Positions 1,108-54,411 of a stretch of 64,000 nt of DNA are shown here, one piece after another. The stretch is from NCBI GenBank assembly GCA_021537435.1, contig GCA_021537435.1_3050.1; one strand, written 5' to 3'. The notes under the pieces are model-generated. The model worked only from the letters and a program-made list of their open reading frames with translations. It was not told the origin of the DNA and did not search any database. The position numbers and the translations under genes are program-made. The first letter of the stretch is position 1. Each line of letters starts with the position of its first letter. Origin of the DNA: a phage.

Positions 1108-1601
1108 AAAGTTTTAATAACCTCTATAATATCGTCTTGAGAAAGACCGTTAATTAAAATATGATGTTCAGCAGGAGATTTAGAAATTTTAAAACATGCC
1201 TCAACATCTTCTGCCATATCCGATGCGCTACGATTTGGATTACTAATTCCAAGACGATGTTTTCCCGTTAAAGGATTAACGATGATATAGCATTTACAGT
1301 TGTTAATATGAACATTAGGTTGAGTCTGATTAATGAACACATCGCAATCATATTTCGCAAGCTGATTTTCTAAAAAGACTTTCATCTCCTCAACTGCATC
1401 AGGAAGCATATCACGGGCTTGCTCAAGACGACGATTTCGATATTCTTTAATGGTCGTTTTCCGCTTGACTTGTTTAGCTAAATCTTTCTTAAGATCGGTG
1501 ATATATCCAACTCGACGATTTCCTTTAAATACAGAAATCCCATCTGTAGTATCACCATATGCTTCAACGACCATCTCAGTAGTAATAAGCTGCAAATCCA
1601 T
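1098..1601 (-). CDS. alc: Alc, host transcription unfolding/termination protein
   Basis: 167-aa product MDLQLITTEMVVEAYGD... matches remembered T4 Alc; track ORF begins one Met earlier. Confidence 0.8.
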   Translation of the reverse strand: MDLQLITTEMVVEAYGDTTDGISVFKGNRRVGYITDLKKDLAKQVKRKTTIKEYRNRRLEQARDMLPDAVEEMKVFLENQLAKYDCDVFINQTQPNVHINNCKCYIIVNPLTGKHRLGISNPNRSASDMAEDVEACFKISKSPAEHHILINGLSQDDIIEVIKTLCN

Positions 1602-1665
1602 CATAAAGTCCTCATGTTATGTCAGTAAGACTACTGTAACACAACACGAGGGACTTGTAAACAGC

Positions 1666-3253
<1,588 letters not shown>

Positions 3254-3783: not shown

Positions 3784-4873
3784 CGTTATGTTCGATTGAG
3801 CTCGCTAATTCTCAATCCGTTCTCTTATGAACTGCTACATATTACTATGCAGACCAGACTATATCACAATCCCAGAGGGATTCTCCCCATTTCGAGTCGC
3901 TTGACCCTACGTCCGAAGACTAGTCGTTGAACCTTGCTTTGCAATTGTCGCCGTGCCATCGTTTATATGTTGATGGTGATAAATCTTTCTTATCACAATA
4001 TGGACAATTCAATTGAATTCTATTTGGATTTAATTTACATCTGTCATTATGTTTTAGATAAAATCCAGGACCTTTACCAATGTGACCACAGAAATCACAT
4101 GTGATTTCTTTTTGTGCAGGATGGGTCCCGTTCTTAACCATTTCTAATGTTTTTGCTGATGTTCTTTTCTTATGGTCTTCTGATAAGAAATGATGTGAAC
4201 CGTCATTTACCCGTTTTGATTGAGTTTCTGACTGCATTTTACCACCGCAAAATACATGAGTACCTTCTTTTATAGCTGCAATATTACGTTCTTTAACTTT
4301 TGCAATATGCTCAGCTTGTTGAAAATTATGTATACCTAATGCAACTCTATTTAAATTAGATTTACGCTGTATTTCACCATCTAAAAGATGAAATGTACCA
4401 TTTTCTATCTTAGATTTAATAGAGGCAATATTTTTAGCTCGTACTTCAGGGATATTAAAAATCTGGATTTCTCTAGATTTTGCGGCTTTAGAAGCTAATT
4501 CAGAAATTTCTTCAGGAGAATATTTCATTCTAAGCTTTATAGCATGACAAGCCTGGTAATCTTTTTGAGCTAAATGTATATCATAATGTTCCTGTATAGA
4601 AAGGCACATCAAATTATCTAAATCATTATTTTCACGGTTACCGTCTTTATGATGGATTTCGTATGTTCTTCCATCAGAATCTTTAGGTATAGGTCCGTTA
4701 GCATCTATCCAAATTTTTCTATAGTTCAATTGTGCATCCTCTTAAAAGTATAATCATATTTATATTATACTAATTAAAGGTGCAAGCAAAACCTTGGCTG
4801 CTAGTTTTCCATAAAGGACTTTCCAGCAATTAAAGGAGTTTTCGATAAACGTTACCGTTTAAAGGCGCATTTT
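3784..4873 (-). ncRNA. group I self-splicing intron in nrdB (about 1090 nt) carrying I-TevIII ORF
   Basis: NrdB reading frame interrupted after ...RFYVSFA plus split Cys codon; exon 1 ends in T and intron ends in G; HNH ORF inside. Confidence 0.7.
3920..4729 (-). CDS. intron-encoded HNH homing endonuclease I-TevIII, full length (269 aa)
   Basis: N-terminal HNH motif EIHHKDGNRENNDLDNLMCLSIQEH; C-terminal Cys-rich zinc finger; inside nrdB intron. Confidence 0.8.
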   Translation of the reverse strand: MNYRKIWIDANGPIPKDSDGRTYEIHHKDGNRENNDLDNLMCLSIQEHYDIHLAQKDYQACHAIKLRMKYSPEEISELASKAAKSREIQIFNIPEVRAKNIASIKSKIENGTFHLLDGEIQRKSNLNRVALGIHNFQQAEHIAKVKERNIAAIKEGTHVFCGGKMQSETQSKRVNDGSHHFLSEDHKKRTSAKTLEMVKNGTHPAQKEITCDFCGHIGKGPGFYLKHNDRCKLNPNRIQLNCPYCDKKDLSPSTYKRWHGDNCKARFND

Positions 4874-5537
4874 ACGCAAAAGATACATAAAAACGAATAG
4901 CTTCCAATGCGTTGATTACATGGAGGCAAAGGTAAAGAGATTTCATCAGATCTCGTTTAGCTCTTTGCTCAACGTCTTTATCAGCTAGAATTAGACCTTG
5001 GTCTTTATAATATTCAACCATGTCTTTAGCATTTTCCCATTCACGGGTTTTAACCAAGACATCATCATAATAGCGACCGATAGATTCAGCACGTTTCATG
5101 ATAGCTTCATCTAATACAATCTCATCAAATACCTTTGATGGATCAGTATAAAGATTTCGCATGATATGAGTATATGAACGACTGTGAATAGTTTCACTAA
5201 AAGTCCATGTAGCAACCCATGTATCAAGGCTTGGGTCTGAAATTAATGACATAAGTACAGCAGATGGCGCACGACCCTGAATGCTATCCAAAAGTGATTG
5301 ATACTTCAGGTTATTAGTAAAAATATTCTGCTGATACTGAGGAAGTTTATTAAATTGTGCAGCATCCATCATCAAGTTTACTTCTTCAGGACGCCAGAAA
5401 AATGATAATTGCTTTTCAGTCAAATCTTCAAAAACTTTATGGCGTTGAATATCATAACGCGCAATACCAAGACCTGAACCGAAGAACATAGGTTCTTTTA
5501 AAACATCAACTGGATTTGTATTAAAAACTGTAGACAT
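4874..5537 (-). CDS. nrdB: ribonucleotide reductase small subunit, exon 1
   Basis: MSTVFNTNPVDVLKEPMFFGSGL...LHVINALEAIRFYVSFA; R2 iron-centre region. Confidence 0.85.
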
Positions 5538-5571: not shown

Positions 5572-6363
5572 TCACATATTATGTATAAGCACTTCGGTCT
5601 GAAATGATGCACCCTTCTTTTGCTTCCTATACATGGTTTCAAAATATTCAATTTTGAAATTATTAGAAAGGGCCCAATCTTTTAAAATATAATTATTAAT
5701 ATCGTCTGATAGATTATTAGTGATAATAAATTTAGACTTCGATTGTTTAATTTTGTCTAATAATTCTAATTCATCCTTTTCTTCCCAGCCTGAATATTTA
5801 AATTTAGTAGAAAGATACGGCGGGTCAATGAATAAATTTTTGTTTTCAAAATCCAAATCTCTGAATGATTTATTACTAAATGTAAATCGGTGCTGTCTAT
5901 TTTTAAATTCAGAAAATTTATCCTGCTGAGACTTATTAAAAGAAGTTCTGGAATACTTGGCTCTATTGGCGAAAGCCGCGTTATAATTCCCATTACTAGA
6001 AAATCGGATTAACGAACTGAATGAAAATAAATGTAGAACATAAAGATATAATCCGTTTTTGGTTTTATCGTATTCTTTTGACAGATTATAAAAAGGTGCT
6101 GAATCTTTGTCATTCAAATTAAAATCTTCAATAATTTTAACTATATCATTAATTGAAGATGATTTCATCTTTTTATACATGTCTATAAGAGGAGTATTAA
6201 TATCATTACATATAACATCTCTCTGACAATTCATAGAAAATCCAAGACCACCACAAAAAGCATCCAAAACAGGCTTATCGTCAAAGCGGTTTGAAAATTG
6301 TCTAATAAATGGCATATACTTATGTTTTGCACCTGGATATGTTATGGCAGGTAGGTCTTTCAT
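5572..6363 (-). CDS. Dam-family DNA N6-adenine methyltransferase (263 aa)
   Basis: SAM-binding motif DAFCGGLG near N-terminus and catalytic DPPY motif; region visibly AT-richer than flanking nrd genes. Confidence 0.75.
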   Translation of the reverse strand: MKDLPAITYPGAKHKYMPFIRQFSNRFDDKPVLDAFCGGLGFSMNCQRDVICNDINTPLIDMYKKMKSSSINDIVKIIEDFNLNDKDSAPFYNLSKEYDKTKNGLYLYVLHLFSFSSLIRFSSNGNYNAAFANRAKYSRTSFNKSQQDKFSEFKNRQHRFTFSNKSFRDLDFENKNLFIDPPYLSTKFKYSGWEEKDELELLDKIKQSKSKFIITNNLSDDINNYILKDWALSNNFKIEYFETMYRKQKKGASFQTEVLIHNM

Positions 6364-6406: not shown

Positions 6407-8671
6407 TCATAATTTACAGGATGAACAATCTTCAGCTTTTGGAGTTTCTATTTCATAATCATCAGTACCAGAACCATCACGGGTATTATGATAATAGAAA
6501 TTTTTTCCGCCAAAATACCAAAAGTACAAAAGGTCATCAATCATTACAGACATTGGAACCTTTCCTTTTGGAAAAATCTGCGGGTCATAATATGTATTTG
6601 CTGAAGCTGATTGACATACCCATTTAAGCATAATAGCTACCTGCGTAAGATAAGGTTTATTACCTTTCTTAGCTAATTTCCATGTATAATCATATAGGTC
6701 TATGTTATGTTCAATATTGGGCACGACTTGATTAAAGGAACCCTCTTTTGATTCTTTAACCGAGACTGGTCCACGTGGAGGCTCGATACCGTTTGTACTG
6801 TTAGAAACTTGGGAAGATGACTCACATGGCATAAGTGCTGATAATGTGCTATTACGGATGCCAAAGAGCTTAAGGTCTTCCCGCAGCGACGACCAGTCAC
6901 AAACGTATTTTGGAGCTGCGATTTGGTCAATCTTTTTATTGTACCAGTCGATAGGTAGTTCGCCTCGAGACCAACGAGTGTCTGAATAATATTCGCAAGG
7001 TCCTTTTTCTTTGGCGAGCTTAATGGATGCTTTAATGAGTCCATACTGTAATCTCTCAAATAGTTCATGTGTTAAATCGTTAGCATCTTCATAAGAAGCA
7101 AAGTTACTTGCCAGCCAAGCTGCATAGTTAGTAACACCTACACCAAGGTTACGACGCTTTTTAGCTTTTTCTGCTTCAGGAACTGGATATCCTTGGTAAT
7201 CCAAAAGATTATCAAGAGCACGAACTTGAACTTCTGCCAATTCATTAATTTTATCTTGGTCTTGCCAATCGAAGTTATCCAACACAAATGCAGATAACGT
7301 ACACAATCCAATTTCAGCATCAGGGCTATTCACATCATTTGTTGGAATAGCAATTTCACAGCATAAGTTACTCTGACGAATAGGTGCCTTTTCACGAATA
7401 AACGGAGTATAGTTATTCGTATTATCAATGAACTGTACATAAATCCTTGCTGTTCCTGAACGTTCAGTCATGAGCAATTCAAATAGTTCACGGGCTTTAA
7501 TACGCTTTTTACGAATATTAGGGTCTTTTTCTGCCGCTTCGTATAATTCACGGAAACGGTCTTGGTCTTTAAAATAAGAATAATAAAGCTCTCCACCCAT
7601 TTCATGGGGACTGAACAAAGTAATGTAATCGTTCTTTCCAAAACGTTCCATCATCAAATCATTCAGTTGAACACCATAATCCATATGACGAATGCGGTTT
7701 TCTTCTACGCCTTTGTTATTTTTCAAAACGAGAAGATTTTCAACTTCCAAATGCCAAATAGGATAATAAGCAGTAGCAGCGCCGCCACGAATTCCACCCT
7801 GTGAACATGATTTAACTGCAGTCTGAAAATGTTTCCAAAAAGGAATAACACCGGTATGGCGTACTTCACCCATGCCAATCTTAGAACCTTCGGCACGAAT
7901 CATACCAACGTTAATACCAATTCCAGCACGTTTGGAGATATATTCAACAATTGAAGCGGAAGCCTTATTGATAGACTTCAATGAATCTCCTGCCTCAATA
8001 ACAACACATGAACTAAACTGTCGAGTCGGAGTACGGCAACCAGCCATAATAGGAGTTGGCAATGAAATCTGTCGAGTAGATACTGCTTCATAAAAACGGA
8101 TAACATGTTTTAATCTATCAACAGGTTCGTCTTGATGCAATGCCATTCCAATAGCCATAAATGCAAACTGTGGAGTTTCATAAATTTGACCAGTGGTTTT
8201 ATCTTTAACTAAATATTTTTCTTTTAATTGCATCGCCCCGGAATAAGTAAATTCCATATCCCGCTCGTGCTTAATTTTTGATTCTAAAAATGTAATTTCT
8301 TCTGCTGAATATTTTGACAACAATTCAGGGTCGTATTTACCTTCATTTACACAGTAAGAAATATGGTCAATAAATGAACGTGGTTCATACTGCCTGTAAA
8401 CATGCTTACGAAGAGCGAACATTAAGCAGCGTGCAGCTACATATTGGTAATCAGGCTCTTCAACTGAAATAGAATTCGCAGCAGCCTTAATGACAATAGT
8501 CTGAATATCATCAGTTGTCATTCCATCACGGAGATAAGATTTAATATTTTCATATAATTCATAAGGATCTACTGATGTTCCCTCAGCTGCCCAAGATAAA
8601 ACTTTAATAATTTTTTGTGGGTCAAAGCTCTGAGAAACACCACTACTTTTGATAACATTAATTAATTGCAT
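6407..8671 (-). CDS. nrdA: ribonucleotide reductase large subunit
   Basis: 754-aa ORF; ATP-cone N-terminus and class I RNR catalytic motifs (NLCCEI, CESS); matches T4 NrdA length. Confidence 0.9.
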   Translation of the reverse strand: MQLINVIKSSGVSQSFDPQKIIKVLSWAAEGTSVDPYELYENIKSYLRDGMTTDDIQTIVIKAAANSISVEEPDYQYVAARCLMFALRKHVYRQYEPRSFIDHISYCVNEGKYDPELLSKYSAEEITFLESKIKHERDMEFTYSGAMQLKEKYLVKDKTTGQIYETPQFAFMAIGMALHQDEPVDRLKHVIRFYEAVSTRQISLPTPIMAGCRTPTRQFSSCVVIEAGDSLKSINKASASIVEYISKRAGIGINVGMIRAEGSKIGMGEVRHTGVIPFWKHFQTAVKSCSQGGIRGGAATAYYPIWHLEVENLLVLKNNKGVEENRIRHMDYGVQLNDLMMERFGKNDYITLFSPHEMGGELYYSYFKDQDRFRELYEAAEKDPNIRKKRIKARELFELLMTERSGTARIYVQFIDNTNNYTPFIREKAPIRQSNLCCEIAIPTNDVNSPDAEIGLCTLSAFVLDNFDWQDQDKINELAEVQVRALDNLLDYQGYPVPEAEKAKKRRNLGVGVTNYAAWLASNFASYEDANDLTHELFERLQYGLIKASIKLAKEKGPCEYYSDTRWSRGELPIDWYNKKIDQIAAPKYVCDWSSLREDLKLFGIRNSTLSALMPCESSSQVSNSTNGIEPPRGPVSVKESKEGSFNQVVPNIEHNIDLYDYTWKLAKKGNKPYLTQVAIMLKWVCQSASANTYYDPQIFPKGKVPMSVMIDDLLYFWYFGGKNFYYHNTRDGSGTDDYEIETPKAEDCSSCKL

Positions 8672-17160: not shown

Positions 17161-20100
17161 ATGGCCGAGATTAAAAGAAAGTTCAGAGCAGAAGATGGTC
17201 TGGACGCAGGTGGTGATAAAATAATCAACGTAGCTTTAGCTGATCGTGCCGTAGGAACTGACGGTGTTAACGTTGATTACTTAATTCAAGAAAACACAGT
17301 TCAACAATACGATCCAACTCGTGGATATTTAAAAGATTTTGTAATCATTTATGATAACCGTTTTTGGGCTGCTATAAATGATATTCCAAAACCAGCAGGA
17401 GCTTTTAATAGCGTACGTTGGAGATCATTACGTACTGATGCTAATTGGACAACTGTTTCATCAGGACCTTATCAATTAAAGTCAGGCGAATCAATTTCAG
17501 TTGATACTGCATCTGGTAATGACATTACATTTACTTTACCATCTTCCCCAATTGATGGAGATACTATCGTTCTCCAAGACATTGGAGGAAAACCTGGAGT
17601 TAATCAAGTTTTAATTACCGCTTCAGTACAAAGTATTGTAAACTTTAGAGGTGAACAAGTACGTTCAGTACTAATGACTCATCCAAAGTCACAGTTAGTT
17701 TTAATTTTTAGTAATCGTCTGTGGCAAATGTATGTAGCTGATTATAGTAGAGAAGCTGTAGTTGTAACACCGGCAAGTCTCTACCAAGCGCAGTCAAACG
17801 ATTTTATCGTGCGTAGATTTACTTCCGCTGCGCCTATTAATATTAAACTTCCGAGATTTGCTAATCATGGCGATATTATTAATTTCGTTGATTTAGATAA
17901 ATTAAATCCTCTTTATCATACAATTGTTACTACATACGATGAAACTACTTCAATACAAGAAGATGGAACTCATTCCATTGAAGGCCGTACATCTATTGAT
18001 GGTTTCTTGATGTATGATGATAATGAGAAATTATGGAGATTATTTGACGGGGATAGTAAAGCACGTTTACGCGTTATAACAACTAATTCTAGCATTCGTC
18101 CAAATGAAGAAGTCATGGTATTTGGTGCGAATAACGGAACAACCCAAACAATTGAACTTCAGCTTCCAACTAATATTTCTGTTGGTGATACTGTTAAAAT
18201 TTCCATGAATTACATGAGAAAAGGACAAACAGTTAAAATCAAAGCTGCTGATGAAGATAAAATTGCTTCTTCAGTTCAATTACTGCAATTCCCAAAACGC
18301 TCAGAATATCCGCCTGAAGCTGAATGGGTGACTGTTCAAGAATTAGTTTTTAATGGTGAAACTAATTATGTTCCAGTTTTGGAACTTGCTTATATAGAAG
18401 ATTCTGATGGAAAATACTGGGTTGTACAACAAAACGTTCCAACAGTTGAAAGAGTTGATTCTTTAAATGATTCTACTAGAGCAAGATTAGGCGTAATTGC
18501 TTTAGCTACACAAGCTCAAGCAAATGCTGATTTAGAAAATTCTCCACAGAAAGAATTAGCAATTACACCAGAAACATTAGCTAACCGTACTGCTACAGAA
18601 ACTCGTAGAGGTATCGCAAGAATAGCAACCACTGCCCAAGTGAACCAGGATACTACATTCTCTTTTGCTGATGATATTATCGTCACTCCTAAAAAGCTGA
18701 ATGAAAGAACTGCCACAGAAACCCGTAGAGGTGTTGCTGAAATTGCTACACAGCAAGAAACTAATGCAGGTACTGATGATACTACAATCATCACTCCTAA
18801 AAAGCTTCAAGCTCGACAAGGTTCTGAATCATTATCTGGTATTGTAACCTTTGTATCTACCGCAGGAGCTACTCCAGCTTCTAGTCGTGAATTAAATGGT
18901 ACAAATGTTTACAATAAAAACACTAATAATTTAGTTGTTTCGCCTAAAGCTTTGGATCAGTATAAAGCTACTCCAACGCAACAAGGTGCAGTAATTTTAG
19001 CAGTTGAAAGTGAAGTAATTGCTGGAAAAAGTCAAGAAGGATGGGCAAATGCTGTTGTAACGCCAGAAACGTTACATAAAAAGACATCAACTGATGGAAG
19101 AATTGGTTTAATTGAAATTGCTACACAAAGTGAAGTTAATACAGGAACTGATTATACTCGTGCAGTCACTCCTAAAACTTTAAATGATCGTAAAGCAACT
19201 GAAAGTTTAAGTGGTATAGCTGAAATTGCTACACAAGTTGAATTCGACGCAGGCGTCGACGATACTCGTATCTCTACACCATTAAAAATTAAAACCAGAT
19301 TTAATAGTACTGATCGTACTTCTGTTGTTGCTCTATCTGGATTAGTTGAATCAGGAACTCTCTGGGACCATTATACCCTTAATATTCTTGAAGCAAATGA
19401 GACACAACGTGGTACACTTCGTGTAGCTACACAAGTTGAAGCTGCTGCAGGAACATTGGATAATGTTCTAATAACTCCTAAAAAGCTTTTAGGTACTAAA
19501 TCTACCGAATCGCAAGAAGGCGTTATTAAAGTTGCAACTCAGGCTGAAACTGTAGCTGGAACGTCAGCAAATACTGCTGTATCTCCAAAAAATTTAAAAT
19601 GGGTTGTACAGAGTGAACCTACTTGGGCAGCTACTACTTTGGTAAGAGGTTTTGTTAAAACTTCATCTGGTTCAATTACATTCGTTGGTAATGATATAGT
19701 TGGTTCAACACAGTCATTAGAATTATATGAGAAAAATAGCTATGCAGTATCGCCATATGAATTAAACCGCGTATTAGCAAATTATTTGCCGTTAAAAGCA
19801 AAAGCTGCAGATAGTAATTTATTAGATGGTCTAGATTCATCTCAGTTCATTCGTAGGGATATTGCACAGACAGTTAATGGTTCACTAACCTTAACGCAAC
19901 AAACGAATCTGAGTGCCCCTCTTGTATCATCTAGTACTGCTACGTTCGGTGGATCAGTTTCAGCAAATAGTACACTAACCATTTCTAATACTGATGGAAC
20001 AGCAACTCGTCTGATTTTTGAGAAAGGACCTCAAACTGGAACGAACCCGGCTCAAACGATGACAGTCAGCGTGTGGGGGAATCAATTTAGTGGGGAATCA

Positions 20101-43127: not shown

Positions 43128-43565
43128 CTAGCTTACACGAACATTAATCACTGCGCTGCGAGGAACTACGGAGTACTCTCCAGCATGAACTACATTAAGA
43201 AGTTCAACGCCATCTTCAATCCACTGGTCAGTTACCCAACCGCCAATCGGATTCGCGAATGGACGACGAATATAAACTGCCTTACACAACAAATCAGTCG
43301 GGTCTTCAGGTTTTTCAATTTCTGTCAATAGACTAAAATCTTTTTCATAAATAATAAGCGGTGATACCATTCCATAATAGTTTCTAATTTCAATATACAT
43401 CATACCGATAAGAATTCCGCTATTAACACTAATAACAGTAAAAGGATATCCGCCAGTTAAACCAAGAAGTTCACAAAACTTATTATGAGCTGTATTAGAC
43501 AGTACCGAAAAATTCTTAATTTCATCAAATTTTTTCAATTGATAAACAGCATTATTTTTAATCAT
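43128..43565 (-). CDS. MotB-like paralogue
   Basis: 145-aa ORF; C-terminal ...GGWVTDQWIEDGVELLNVV... parallels ...CGYITDQWVEDGVKLYNVV... in the adjacent ORF. Confidence 0.45.
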   Translation of the reverse strand: MIKNNAVYQLKKFDEIKNFSVLSNTAHNKFCELLGLTGGYPFTVISVNSGILIGMMYIEIRNYYGMVSPLIIYEKDFSLLTEIEKPEDPTDLLCKAVYIRRPFANPIGGWVTDQWIEDGVELLNVVHAGEYSVVPRSAVINVRVS

Positions 43566-51764: not shown

Positions 51765-52283
51765 TCAATAACCTCGGTCTTGACGAGCGAAGTTTTCAGC
51801 ATTTTTCAGATAATAAAGTTTAAAGATTTCTTCAGCCGTAAGACCGAGACCTTGGAACATGTTCAGAACGAAATGAAGAATATCAATCATTTCGAATTTA
51901 ATTTCCAACTGGTCTTGTGGAGATAAGTCAGTAATCAGAGTTTCACGACGTTCACCGTGTTGCGACTTCCACGGCTTCCATACAGCAGATGCATCTTTTT
52001 CGCCATTGCTCATACCACCAAGAGAAGTCAGAAGTTCGCGGAATTCATCATCAATATAATCTTTCTGATTACGCAACCAATCAACAACTTCACCTGCAGT
52101 AGCCAAATCATCAGGATGACGGTTATATTCAGGTTTATCTTTAGCTAAACGAACCTGCAGAGATTTCTGCATATCAAGCATAACCTGCAGCGGGTCTTTT
52201 TCATCACCGAGAATATCCCAGTATTCATTTTGAGCTTTATCAGCACCTTCGATCAGTTGACTACATTCGTTAAAGTATGCCAT
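51765..52283 (-). CDS. 56: dCTPase/dUTPase gp56
   Basis: start MAYFNECSQLIEGADKAQNEYWDILGDEKDPLQVMLDMQ...; track ORF extended upstream. Confidence 0.85.
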   Translation of the reverse strand: MAYFNECSQLIEGADKAQNEYWDILGDEKDPLQVMLDMQKSLQVRLAKDKPEYNRHPDDLATAGEVVDWLRNQKDYIDDEFRELLTSLGGMSNGEKDASAVWKPWKSQHGERRETLITDLSPQDQLEIKFEMIDILHFVLNMFQGLGLTAEEIFKLYYLKNAENFARQDRGY

Positions 52284-52354
52284 TATTTTTCCTTTCAATT
52301 CATGGGTTAGTAGATTAATTATACAATAAATATATAAAGCAATAAGGAGGATAT

Positions 52355-52555
52355 ATGGTACAAAAATTAATGGCACTTGTTAATGCCATAAAAGGTAATA
52401 AAAAACGTATAGCTTTTACTATTTCTGCTATGGTAGGAATTTTACTCTGGAATTTTGTTTTATCACCAATTGCTATTGCTCATGGTGTTAATATTCCAGT
52501 AATTACTCTTGATACATTCGTAGATTTAGCATTTGCTTTGGTTGGGTTAATTTAA
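52355..52555 (+). CDS. small membrane protein (66 aa) on the opposite strand
   Basis: strong RBS AAGGAGG seven nt before ATG; two hydrophobic helices. Confidence 0.5.
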   Translation: MVQKLMALVNAIKGNKKRIAFTISAMVGILLWNFVLSPIAIAHGVNIPVITLDTFVDLAFALVGLI

Positions 52556-53580
52556 ATCTTAGCATATTTAGATAGCCGCATTTTAGCCATCAACCCTTGG
52601 GCAATATTATTTTTCATATATTCCATAATTTGTTCAGGGGTTGCACCTTCCTTTCTAATCATATCATTAACATCTTTTGATTTCCAGGGAGATTTATCCC
52701 AAAACATAACCCTTTCTCCTGCATCAACTAATTTAGTCATTCGTTTAATAGTGTCAGGGTGACGAGGTTCATTATCTAAAACCCATACACGTCTATCTTT
52801 AAATGGAACAATTTCTAGGTCTAATTGACCACCCGTAATAGCTATACCATTTTCAATAAAAAGTGAATCTATAGGTCCTTCTAGAACATATACATCACCA
52901 TCTTTGACTCGTTCAACTCCATAGATTTTTGTTGCCTCAGGATAAGCTTTGATGGTGATATATTTTTGAGGAGCATCTTTCTTTAATGCACGTCCTTGAA
53001 AGGACTCGGCTTTTCCGTTAGCATTATAAATTGGAATAACAAGACGAGGCTCGGGCATTTCCTTTTTATATGTTCCTGGCGCTATACTATTAACTAATTT
53101 AGGCCATTCAGTTGTAAACCAAAGATATTTCCATTTATCCTTTGGAATACAACGAGCTTTTACATATTTTATAATTGGATGGTCTTCCGCCAGTTTATCT
53201 AATCTAATGCATGACGGAAGAGATTTAATTATTTTCTTCTCAGGTTGTTTAGGAAGTTCTTTAGGTTTTTCTACTGGACGACTTTTACCTTTTTCTTTTC
53301 TTATTTCAAAGATATATTCACGATATAAATCAGGTTCAAACTCCTTTAAATATATTCCGATTGGTGCATGATAGTTGCAGTTATAACAATGAATATTTCC
53401 TTCATTATTATCACCATAATACCATCCACGGGCTTTATTTTGGTCGGTTTTTGAATCTCCACAAACAGGGCATCTAAACCGTAATTTAAAAGTTGAACTA
53501 TTATTTACTTGTACGAATTTAGGTAAATGAGCCAATGCACGGTATGCAAACTCATTATCAATCCAAGGTATTGATGACAT
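52552..53580 (-). CDS. 61: DNA primase gp61
   Basis: 342-aa ORF; N-terminal zinc-binding CPVCGDS...CYNC; TOPRIM core. Confidence 0.9.
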   Translation of the reverse strand: MSSIPWIDNEFAYRALAHLPKFVQVNNSSTFKLRFRCPVCGDSKTDQNKARGWYYGDNNEGNIHCYNCNYHAPIGIYLKEFEPDLYREYIFEIRKEKGKSRPVEKPKELPKQPEKKIIKSLPSCIRLDKLAEDHPIIKYVKARCIPKDKWKYLWFTTEWPKLVNSIAPGTYKKEMPEPRLVIPIYNANGKAESFQGRALKKDAPQKYITIKAYPEATKIYGVERVKDGDVYVLEGPIDSLFIENGIAITGGQLDLEIVPFKDRRVWVLDNEPRHPDTIKRMTKLVDAGERVMFWDKSPWKSKDVNDMIRKEGATPEQIMEYMKNNIAQGLMAKMRLSKYAKI

Positions 53581-53748: not shown

Positions 53749-54105
53749 TTAACCTCTATTCATAAAAGCATTAAAAATTTGGTCATCAATAGATGGAATA
53801 GCAACCTTTTCTACATCATTTAACAAATCATTAATTTCATCAGATAGCATAACGCATGTACCTTTATTTCCTGTAATTGTTACTGCACAATTACGAACGT
53901 TTTCTTTATCAAATTTTAGGTTAATATTTTCGTAGTGAAAATCCTTTAATGCCGAATATATTTTTAAAATGAAATTGTCTTTTACTACAATAAACCCAAC
54001 TTCACTATTAAAACGTGGTTCATGGAAACTGTAATAAACCTTTTCATCTATAAAATCGTATGATATTTTTTCCATTTTTAAATATGAAAATTCAGAACTA
54101 TACAT
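53749..54105 (-). CDS. hypothetical protein (T4 61.2 position)
   Basis: 118-aa ORF between primase and sp. Confidence 0.45.
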   Translation of the reverse strand: MYSSEFSYLKMEKISYDFIDEKVYYSFHEPRFNSEVGFIVVKDNFILKIYSALKDFHYENINLKFDKENVRNCAVTITGNKGTCVMLSDEINDLLNDVEKVAIPSIDDQIFNAFMNRG

Positions 54106-54117
54106 ACTAACCTCTAA

Positions 54118-54411
54118 TTACTCACCTACCACTTCAGCGATGATATTTTTATTATTAAAGTTTTTATCGCAATACAGAACATAATTATACTGCATTACAC
54201 CACCAGACTTAAGCTGTTTTTGTACTTCAGCTTTCATTTCAGGACGGTCACGCTCAACAATATTCATAATATCTGCTTCAATTTGAGTTTCAACTTCAGT
54301 CTGATCTGCAGTCATAGACCATTCACACAAATCTTTGTCATAACCCGCCATAGCAGGCTGAGCAGCACAAGAAGATAAAGCAAAAATTGTAGCAAAGATA
54401 AATTTTTTCAT
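54118..54411 (-). CDS. sp: Spackle periplasmic protein
   Basis: 97-aa ORF with signal peptide MKKFIFATIFALSSCAAQPAMA. Confidence 0.7.
   Translation of the reverse strand: MKKFIFATIFALSSCAAQPAMAGYDKDLCEWSMTADQTEVETQIEADIMNIVERDRPEMKAEVQKQLKSGGVMQYNYVLYCDKNFNNKNIIAEVVGE

Follow-up and report, generated by a model that had tools for sequence, protein, structure and literature searches.

A small plus-strand open reading frame between genes 56 and 61 of T-even phages is assigned by its sequence to dam.1 and predicted to encode a late, accessory inner-membrane protein

The stretch of phage DNA analysed here (64,000 nucleotides of contig GCA_021537435.1_3050.1, GenBank assembly GCA_021537435.1; referred to as the window) contains a short plus-strand open reading frame (ORF) between gene 56 and primase gene 61, inside a minus-strand early block. 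A preliminary description of the locus had read this ORF as standing there instead of the DNA methyltransferase gene dam, had called its strand unusual and had predicted a two-helix membrane protein. The locus therefore raised the question of what this ORF is, whether its presence has anything to do with the absence of dam, when it would be expressed and what its product might do.

The window is derived from a Tequatrovirus: over 2 kb it showed 98.9% identity to the Shigella phages ESh16/ESh34 and 98.8% to pSs-1. As read from the sequence, the gap between genes 56 and 61 runs from 52287 to 52551 and measures 265 bp, in agreement with the approximately 270 bp given before. The description of its content also held. 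The ORF list contained no methyltransferase in this interval, tblastn of T4 Dam against the window gave no match there, and the 66-aa plus-strand ORF with its strong ribosome binding site AAGGAGG was recovered at the expected place (Table 1), where it matched PHROG 2024 and proved to be under purifying selection. On one side, 68 bp separate the ORF from gene 56, its immediate neighbour. At its other end, its stop codon (TAA, 52553-52555) and the minus-strand stop codon of gene 61 (TAA, 52554-52552) overlap by 4 nt. The same 4-nt overlap was found in T4, Mosigvirus, Dhakavirus, Marfavirus and Kanagawavirus and was missing from a metagenomic relative (locus L014), and GGAGG or GGAG was kept at the Shine-Dalgarno position in every genus compared. 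Further along the early block, at the position of gene 61.2 (53749-54105, minus strand), a 118-aa ORF of the RB32ORF033c type replaces the 208-aa 61.2 of T4.

Table 1. Coordinates of genes and predicted signals at the gene 56-gene 61 locus of the window
Feature	Position	Strand	Basis
Gene 56 (dCTPase/dUTPase, 173 aa), divergent neighbour of dam.1	51765..52286	-	phrog_173, E = 1.5e-46; annotations in relatives
Putative MotA-type middle promoter for gene 56: TGCTTTA 52341..52335, 11-nt spacer, -10 TATAAT 52323..52318	52318..52341	-	Read from sequence
Putative gp55-type late promoter AATAAATA, core ATAAATA 52326-52332	52325..52332	+	Core conservation, motif depletion
Shine-Dalgarno AAGGAGG, 4 nt 5' of dam.1 ATG	52344..52350	+	Read from sequence
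dam.1 / RB32ORF030w / PHROG 2024 coding sequence, 66 aa + stop	52355..52555	+	ORF listing; phrog_2024 match
Terminator-like hairpin ATGGCATTAACAAGTGCCAT then TAATTTTTGT, 3' of gene 61, inside dam.1 codons 6-12	52370..52389	-	Consensus scan
Palindrome ATTTAAAT with the overlapping stops of dam.1 and gene 61	52550..52557	.	Read from sequence
Gene 61 (DNA primase, 342 aa), convergent neighbour of dam.1	52552..53580	-	ORF listing; phrog_47, E = 1.9e-107; pSs-1 and vB_SsoM_113 annotations

When the translated ORF was compared with phrog_2024, residues 2-66 aligned with positions 1-65 of the 65-position profile (E = 5.4e-31), and the protein was 95.5% identical to Dam.1 of T4T (T4Tp032, ADJ39749). 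The ORF is thus an already known gene, annotated as hypothetical (dam.1, PHROG 2024). By tblastn dam.1 was detected in 693 phage records, approximately 500 of them at 90-100% identity (Tequatrovirus) and approximately 190 at about 50% (Mosigvirus and Gaprivervirus), and it overlapped the annotated primase gene in all tblastn records among the matches listed. A plus-strand copy convergent with gene 61 is found in T4, T4T, pSs-1, ST0, VR25, WG01, Marfa and CIP9, and the slot abutting gene 61 is filled by a family member in Tequatro-, Mosig-, Gapriver-, Dhaka-, Marfa- and Kanagawavirus; both the gene and its synteny are conserved. The ORF is called dam.1 in T4T, RB32ORF030w in RB14 and vB_SsoM_113, and hypothetical protein in hundreds of genomes, and it is left unannotated in the T4 records NC_000866 and AF158101 and in the 1984 record X01416. 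The T4 copy is located at 17738..17938 (+) of NC_000866 (3739..3939 of retrieved locus L003) and encodes a protein 94% identical to that of the window. Dam.1 of T4 and T4T resembles the window copy in length, in the 4-nt overlap with gene 61, in the Shine-Dalgarno sequence and in an upstream ATAAATA core. Judged by this similarity, the ORF is an orthologue of T4 dam.1 and a conserved accessory gene of the enterobacterial T-even phages.

A profile search of 1.84 billion representative proteins returned nothing outside this phage group except one match to a PQQ-repeat protein, which was spurious and arose via 'LLWNF..SSPAVANG' repeats. Foldseek against viral models (BFVD) likewise returned family members only, and the match to CIP9 at 27% identity led to a second, divergent subfamily. 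Gaprivervirus VR25 carries both subfamilies as two tandem copies 8 nt apart (2495-2901 of retrieved locus L005), where the second copy belongs to the divergent subfamily and shares 23% identity with the protein of the window. This second subfamily alone fills the slot in Dhakavirus (WG01, JS98), Marfavirus and Kanagawavirus (CIP9, PEi26), and all subfamilies match phrog_2024. In VR25 the second copy lacks a separate promoter core, so that the two genes presumably form one operon. In TH40 the second copy was broken by frameshifts or a deletion (approximately 1690-1930 of retrieved locus L017), and several further records matched it only in part. In Edwardsiella phage PEi26 an unannotated member (MTKKPLFRLNNHKKKVVIVSVGVLVVLWNFIIIPVAASNGLVLPPVTIEHLRTAATLMLGF) was found between ORF-028 and the primase gene, at approximately 1480-1670 (+) of retrieved locus L024.

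The relation of dam.1 to dam was evaluated by comparing the 56-61 interval among T-even genomes, a check that had been proposed with the preliminary description. The ORF was constant and the dam slot variable. T4 carries both genes, with dam.1 lying between dam and gene 61, which contradicts the view that the ORF is present 'instead' of dam. The 310 bp from the end of dam to gene 61 in T4, an apparently empty stretch, contain dam.1. In T4 and T4T, dam sits between dam.1 and gene 56, whereas in the window nothing lies between them; the same slot holds a homing endonuclease in fPS-2 and unrelated ORFs in Marfa, KpNIH-6, CIP9 and PEi26. dam.1 is an accessory gene independent of dam and is no replacement for it. 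The lack of dam, which had been singled out as noteworthy, is not exceptional either. T4-type dam (at least 90% identity) was found in approximately 182 records, compared with approximately 500 Tequatrovirus records for dam.1, and the dam-less state is therefore the commoner one.

Although the phage has no dam at the 56-61 position, it does have a Dam-family enzyme elsewhere. A D12-class N6-adenine DNA methyltransferase of 263 aa is encoded at 5572..6363 on the minus strand (PF02086, E = 5.5e-24) and is only 34% identical to T4 Dam by tblastn. Its neighbours are nrdA (6407..8671) on one side and, on the other, the first part of nrdB (4872..5537). This methyltransferase is rare, with five phage records at 95% identity or above (e.g. 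T4_ev240) and four at 60-80%, one of the latter being Marfavirus PhiKpNIH-6. A 269-aa ORF with an HNH-like N-terminus (EIHHKDGNRENNDLDNL; 3920-4729, minus strand) adjoins the nrdB fragment and may be a full-length I-TevIII-type intron endonuclease.

The timing of dam.1 expression was approached through its upstream sequence. Late genes of T4 (gp55/gp33/gp45-dependent), whose transcripts appear late and require DNA replication, have a TATAAATA-type element at about -13 to -6, close to the gene and with no -35 element; AATAAATA in the window, 22 nt before the ATG, is an element of this type. Within diverged flanks, an ATAAATA core preceded the ATG by 14-22 nt in six genera (Tequatro-, Mosig-, Gapriver-, Dhaka-, Marfa- and Kanagawavirus) and was the only upstream element conserved across genera; the metagenomic relative (locus L014) had no exact core. 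The base 5' of the core varies: the site reads AATAAATA in the window, Mosigvirus and Dhakavirus, GATAAATA in T4 (G), CATAAATA in Gaprivervirus (C in VR25) and the canonical TATAAATA in Marfavirus and Kanagawavirus (CIP9). The T at -13 is known to be poorly conserved in T4-like phages, where A is common (Nolan et al. 2006, PMC1524935). Counted over its two strands, the window contained 13 copies of ATAAATA as against 37.7 +/- 5.8 in shuffled sequences, a three-fold depletion, as would be expected if the T4 late-promoter core were avoided wherever it does not serve as a promoter. Six of the 12 other occurrences lie upstream of ORFs recognised as T4 late or late-promoter-driven genes, which from N-terminal sequence and length are presumably gp34, gp36, holin t, soc, I-TevI and gene 32. 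Like dam.1, t and I-TevI have the variant AATAAATA, and in t the element is followed by 18 nt and the ATG. The probability of chance placement of the motif in such a position was approximately 0.0025 per lineage. With about half of its occurrences just upstream of late genes, ATAAATA can be used as a late-gene marker in this genome. The occurrences at 43347 (+), 8945 (-), 4763 (-) and 10424 (+) had no obvious gene start downstream.

From these motifs, dam.1 is very probably transcribed late from a gp55-dependent promoter, with a predicted transcription start near 52338 and a leader of approximately 17 nt. Such a promoter would explain why dam.1 lies on the plus strand, convergent with the early/middle gene 61. 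T4 late genes are normally transcribed from the plus strand, and with a conserved late-promoter core in front of it the orientation of the ORF is not unusual, contrary to the first impression. The late gene soc, approximately 600 bp away in the same early block, has its own TATAAATA on the minus strand.

The MotA/-10 middle promoter consensus was used for the gene 56 promoter listed in Table 1. Its position matches that of P(M) 16.53 upstream of gene 69/56 (X01416), which is associated with oriA in T4, and that of a 'predicted middle promoter' annotated in fPS-2. The 68-bp spacer between gene 56 and dam.1 thus contains two divergent putative promoters of different temporal classes on the same bases. 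Part of the local conservation of ATAAATA could stem from overlap with the spacer of the gene 56 middle promoter. In the literature on dam.1, RB32ORF030w, T4 ribosome profiling and transcription-start maps, no transcript, protein or phenotype data for the ORF were found.

Alternatively, dam.1 might be an early or middle gene, read by sigma-70 RNA polymerase alone or together with MotA, whose product acts like Imm and Sp in superinfection exclusion. We consider this rather improbable. The gene does lie within the early/middle cluster, few genes from sp (54118..54411), and a weak sigma-70-like match (9/12) was detected at 52257-52286 (+). However, this site is inside gene 56 and has no equivalent in T4, whose sequence there belongs to dam; sigma-70-like sites numbered 13 in the region compared with 11.2 in shuffled sequences, which is no excess; and the sole upstream element shared across genera is the late core. 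T4 Imm and Sp are, as the dam.1 product probably is, small non-essential envelope proteins encoded among early genes, and sp is approximately 1.6 kb from dam.1 in the window. imm and sp are early-strand genes with early expression, whereas dam.1 lies on the late strand behind a late-promoter core. No sequence similarity to Imm, Sp or other small T4 membrane proteins was detected, RI (see below) being the only such protein compared directly, and the comparison is otherwise one of kind.

The predicted protein is hydrophobic. Residues 2-13 form an amphipathic helix, followed by a basic cluster, KGNKKR, which together give the N-terminus a net charge of +5. Residues 18-42, approximately, constitute a clear transmembrane segment, with a Hessa 19-mer sum of about 0 kcal/mol (18-40). 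In residues 43-66 the sum was +4 to +7 kcal/mol and the net charge -2; the C-terminal helix carries the conserved acidic residues D53 and D57 on one helical face and is even less hydrophobic in the second subfamily. An AF2 model built from a five-sequence alignment had helices at 2-13, 16-42 and 52-63 with a mean pLDDT of 73. Hence, of the two membrane helices described earlier, the one at approximately 18-42 was retained, while the acidic second helix, at +4 to +7 kcal/mol, is doubtful as a transmembrane segment. The residues M1, W32, N33, P38, G44 and P48 were invariant across both subfamilies. A dual start at M1...M6, seen only in Tequatrovirus, was dismissed.

Because of the positive-inside rule, these features suggest an N-in/C-out topology, based on a simple hydrophobicity sum and an AF2 model of moderate confidence. 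With this topology the C-terminal helix, which is short, would lie in the periplasm or at the interface. A hairpin of two transmembrane segments, or cleavage at the AXA-like A40-I41-A42, is conceivable. The dam.1 product is probably a small inner-membrane protein, and the invariant Asn next to Trp in the middle of the membrane, along with the likewise invariant Pro, suggests action through intramembrane helix contacts.

The cleavage model in its full form takes the first 42 residues as a cleavable Sec signal peptide and the product as a secreted 24-residue acidic amphipathic periplasmic peptide. It would account for the basic n-region, the hydrophobic core, the Pro at -5 and the small residues at -3/-1 in most members (AIA, ALA, AAS, AAT). 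The n-region of 18 aa and the h-region of approximately 20-24 aa are, however, much longer than those of typical SPase I substrates, and in Mosigvirus members this position reads LVA. That W32-N33 never varies in the hydrophobic core also argues for a functional segment and not for a disposable leader. We therefore prefer the uncleaved membrane protein and regard secretion of a peptide as quite unlikely.

Genome-wide screens bear on whether dam.1 is required. In the HIDEN-SEQ table for the T4 relative Bas37, a 201-nt plus-strand ORF, bas37_0144, overlaps the primase stop by 4 nt. Its TA sites were disrupted at 20 of 24 positions, it was classed 'Non-essential', and q was 1.0 in two conditional comparisons. 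It was not named among the hits in the main text. From this geometry we infer that bas37_0144 is the dam.1 orthologue, and by analogy dam.1 is probably non-essential. Since dam.1 is absent from the T4 reference annotation, neither CRISPRi-ART nor HIDEN-SEQ has it among its T4 genes: the CRISPRi-ART list was taken from NC_000866, its tables passing from dam straight to gene 61, and the HIDEN-SEQ T4 table omits the ORF.

Searches of Pfam, NCBIfam, PDB sequences and the BFVD fold library revealed no homology to any protein of known function. The best PDB match, NqrE (E = 0.12), was attributed to hydrophobic composition. One UniProt entry of the family (vB_EcoM_OE5505) is labelled 'Holin', and a holin or pinholin would be consistent with a small hydrophobic protein whose late-type promoter and strong Shine-Dalgarno sequence resemble those of t in the window. 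We nevertheless consider this identity highly improbable. The label is that of the submitter, and Pfam, PHROGs and NCBIfam gave no match to back it; the protein ends in a hydrophobic, acidic segment, as opposed to the typical basic hydrophilic tail of holins; only one transmembrane helix is confident; and the apparent Bas37 orthologue tolerates insertions, which a required holin should not. Moreover, T4 t mutants do not lyse, so the holin of T4 is already known to be T. Of the features by which holins are recognised, dam.1 has at least one transmembrane segment, and it shows neither a charged hydrophilic C-terminus nor, judging from the apparent Bas37 orthologue, a requirement for lysis or plaque formation. 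With T4 T and the class II/III holins the dam.1 product would share a late-type promoter, a strong Shine-Dalgarno sequence and the form of a small bitopic N-in protein. In contrast to them, it has no charged C-terminal or large periplasmic domain, and no sequence or fold similarity between dam.1 and holins was found.

The antiholin RI of T4 was a further candidate, as both it and the dam.1 product are small envelope proteins with a membrane segment, predicted N-in, that ends in FVLSP. BLASTP aligned Dam.1 residues 19-38 with RI residues 1-20 at 8/20 identities and a pairwise E of 0.009. At profile level the similarity was not significant, with an hhalign probability of 0.2%. The two proteins also differ in that RI has a periplasmic domain of 70 residues behind its weakly hydrophobic, releasable signal anchor (signal-anchor-release, SAR), compared with 24 residues in Dam.1, and the transmembrane segment of Dam.1 is more hydrophobic than the SAR segment of RI (sum approximately 4.5 for RI, calculated by hand on the same scale).

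dam.1 is a real protein-coding gene under purifying selection. Pairs from the same genus (Tequatrovirus or Mosigvirus) gave Nei-Gojobori dN/dS values of 0.16-0.28; in comparisons between genera dS was saturated and dN was 0.28-0.47. Variable alignment columns by codon position 1/2/3 numbered 45/23/59, in the order 3 > 1 > 2, and the reading frame stayed open at 63-66 aa across genera saturated at synonymous sites. The terminator-like hairpin inside the coding sequence had an unremarkable fold z-score of -1.6 and was not conserved in Mosigvirus, while the annotators of fPS-2 placed a terminator at the matching position. The RNA structure of the 5' region of dam.1 was unremarkable on both strands. 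That the ORF is only a non-coding spacer composed of regulatory elements (a terminator for gene 61, the middle promoter of gene 56/oriA and a late promoter in antisense), with an incidental frame and a late transcript serving as antisense RNA to gene 61, is barely credible: the minus-strand hairpin within the ORF, the abutting MotA-type promoter and the lack of a plus-strand terminator in the 1.4 kb scanned downstream, so that late transcription would continue into gene 61 in antisense, are in its favour, but the hairpin is not significant and not conserved outside Tequatrovirus, the frame keeps a constant length despite saturated synonymous sites, dN/dS is well below 1 with second codon positions varying least, and an antisense role could coexist with coding and cannot account for conservation at the protein level.

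Taken as a whole, the reading that we consider likely is that the ORF is the dam.1 orthologue and encodes a late, dispensable inner-membrane protein that acts by helix contacts and is independent of dam. In this proposal gp55-RNA polymerase would start at the AATAAATA promoter approximately 30 nt upstream of the ATG and produce a leader of approximately 17 nt with a strong Shine-Dalgarno sequence. The 66-aa product would insert into the inner membrane with its short amphipathic N-terminal helix and basic cluster (+5) in the cytoplasm and with one transmembrane helix (approximately 18-42) bearing W32-N33 and P38, which are invariant in the family. The likewise invariant G44 and P48 would be followed by the 24-residue acidic amphipathic C-terminal helix, probably at the periplasmic face or re-entrant. 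The protein would act through contacts between membrane helices, whether with further copies of itself or with another membrane protein, and is unlikely to be an enzyme; dam.1 would be dispensable for growth on laboratory E. coli. The coding nature, conservation, synteny and hydrophobicity of dam.1 are shown by the sequences, whereas its late timing, topology and mode of action are inferred. As for the process concerned, our best guess, held with low confidence, is that dam.1 modulates an envelope event late in infection, such as the timing or inhibition of lysis, protection from superinfection or a host-specific membrane function.

A bolder version of this proposal, which we think unlikely, is that dam.1 is an unrecognised late component of the T-even envelope repertoire, for instance a membrane partner that tunes holin T, antiholin RI or the spanins or that protects the late cell from superinfection or from membrane-targeting host defences. 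If this were true, a late envelope role would have escaped notice for decades owing to the omission of dam.1 from the T4 reference annotation. A practical point is that a gene that is conserved in at least six T-even genera, is under purifying selection and has its own putative late-promoter core is missing from NC_000866 and AF158101, and the T4 reference annotation should include dam.1. Beyond that, dam.1 would simply add to the many small membrane proteins of the phage.
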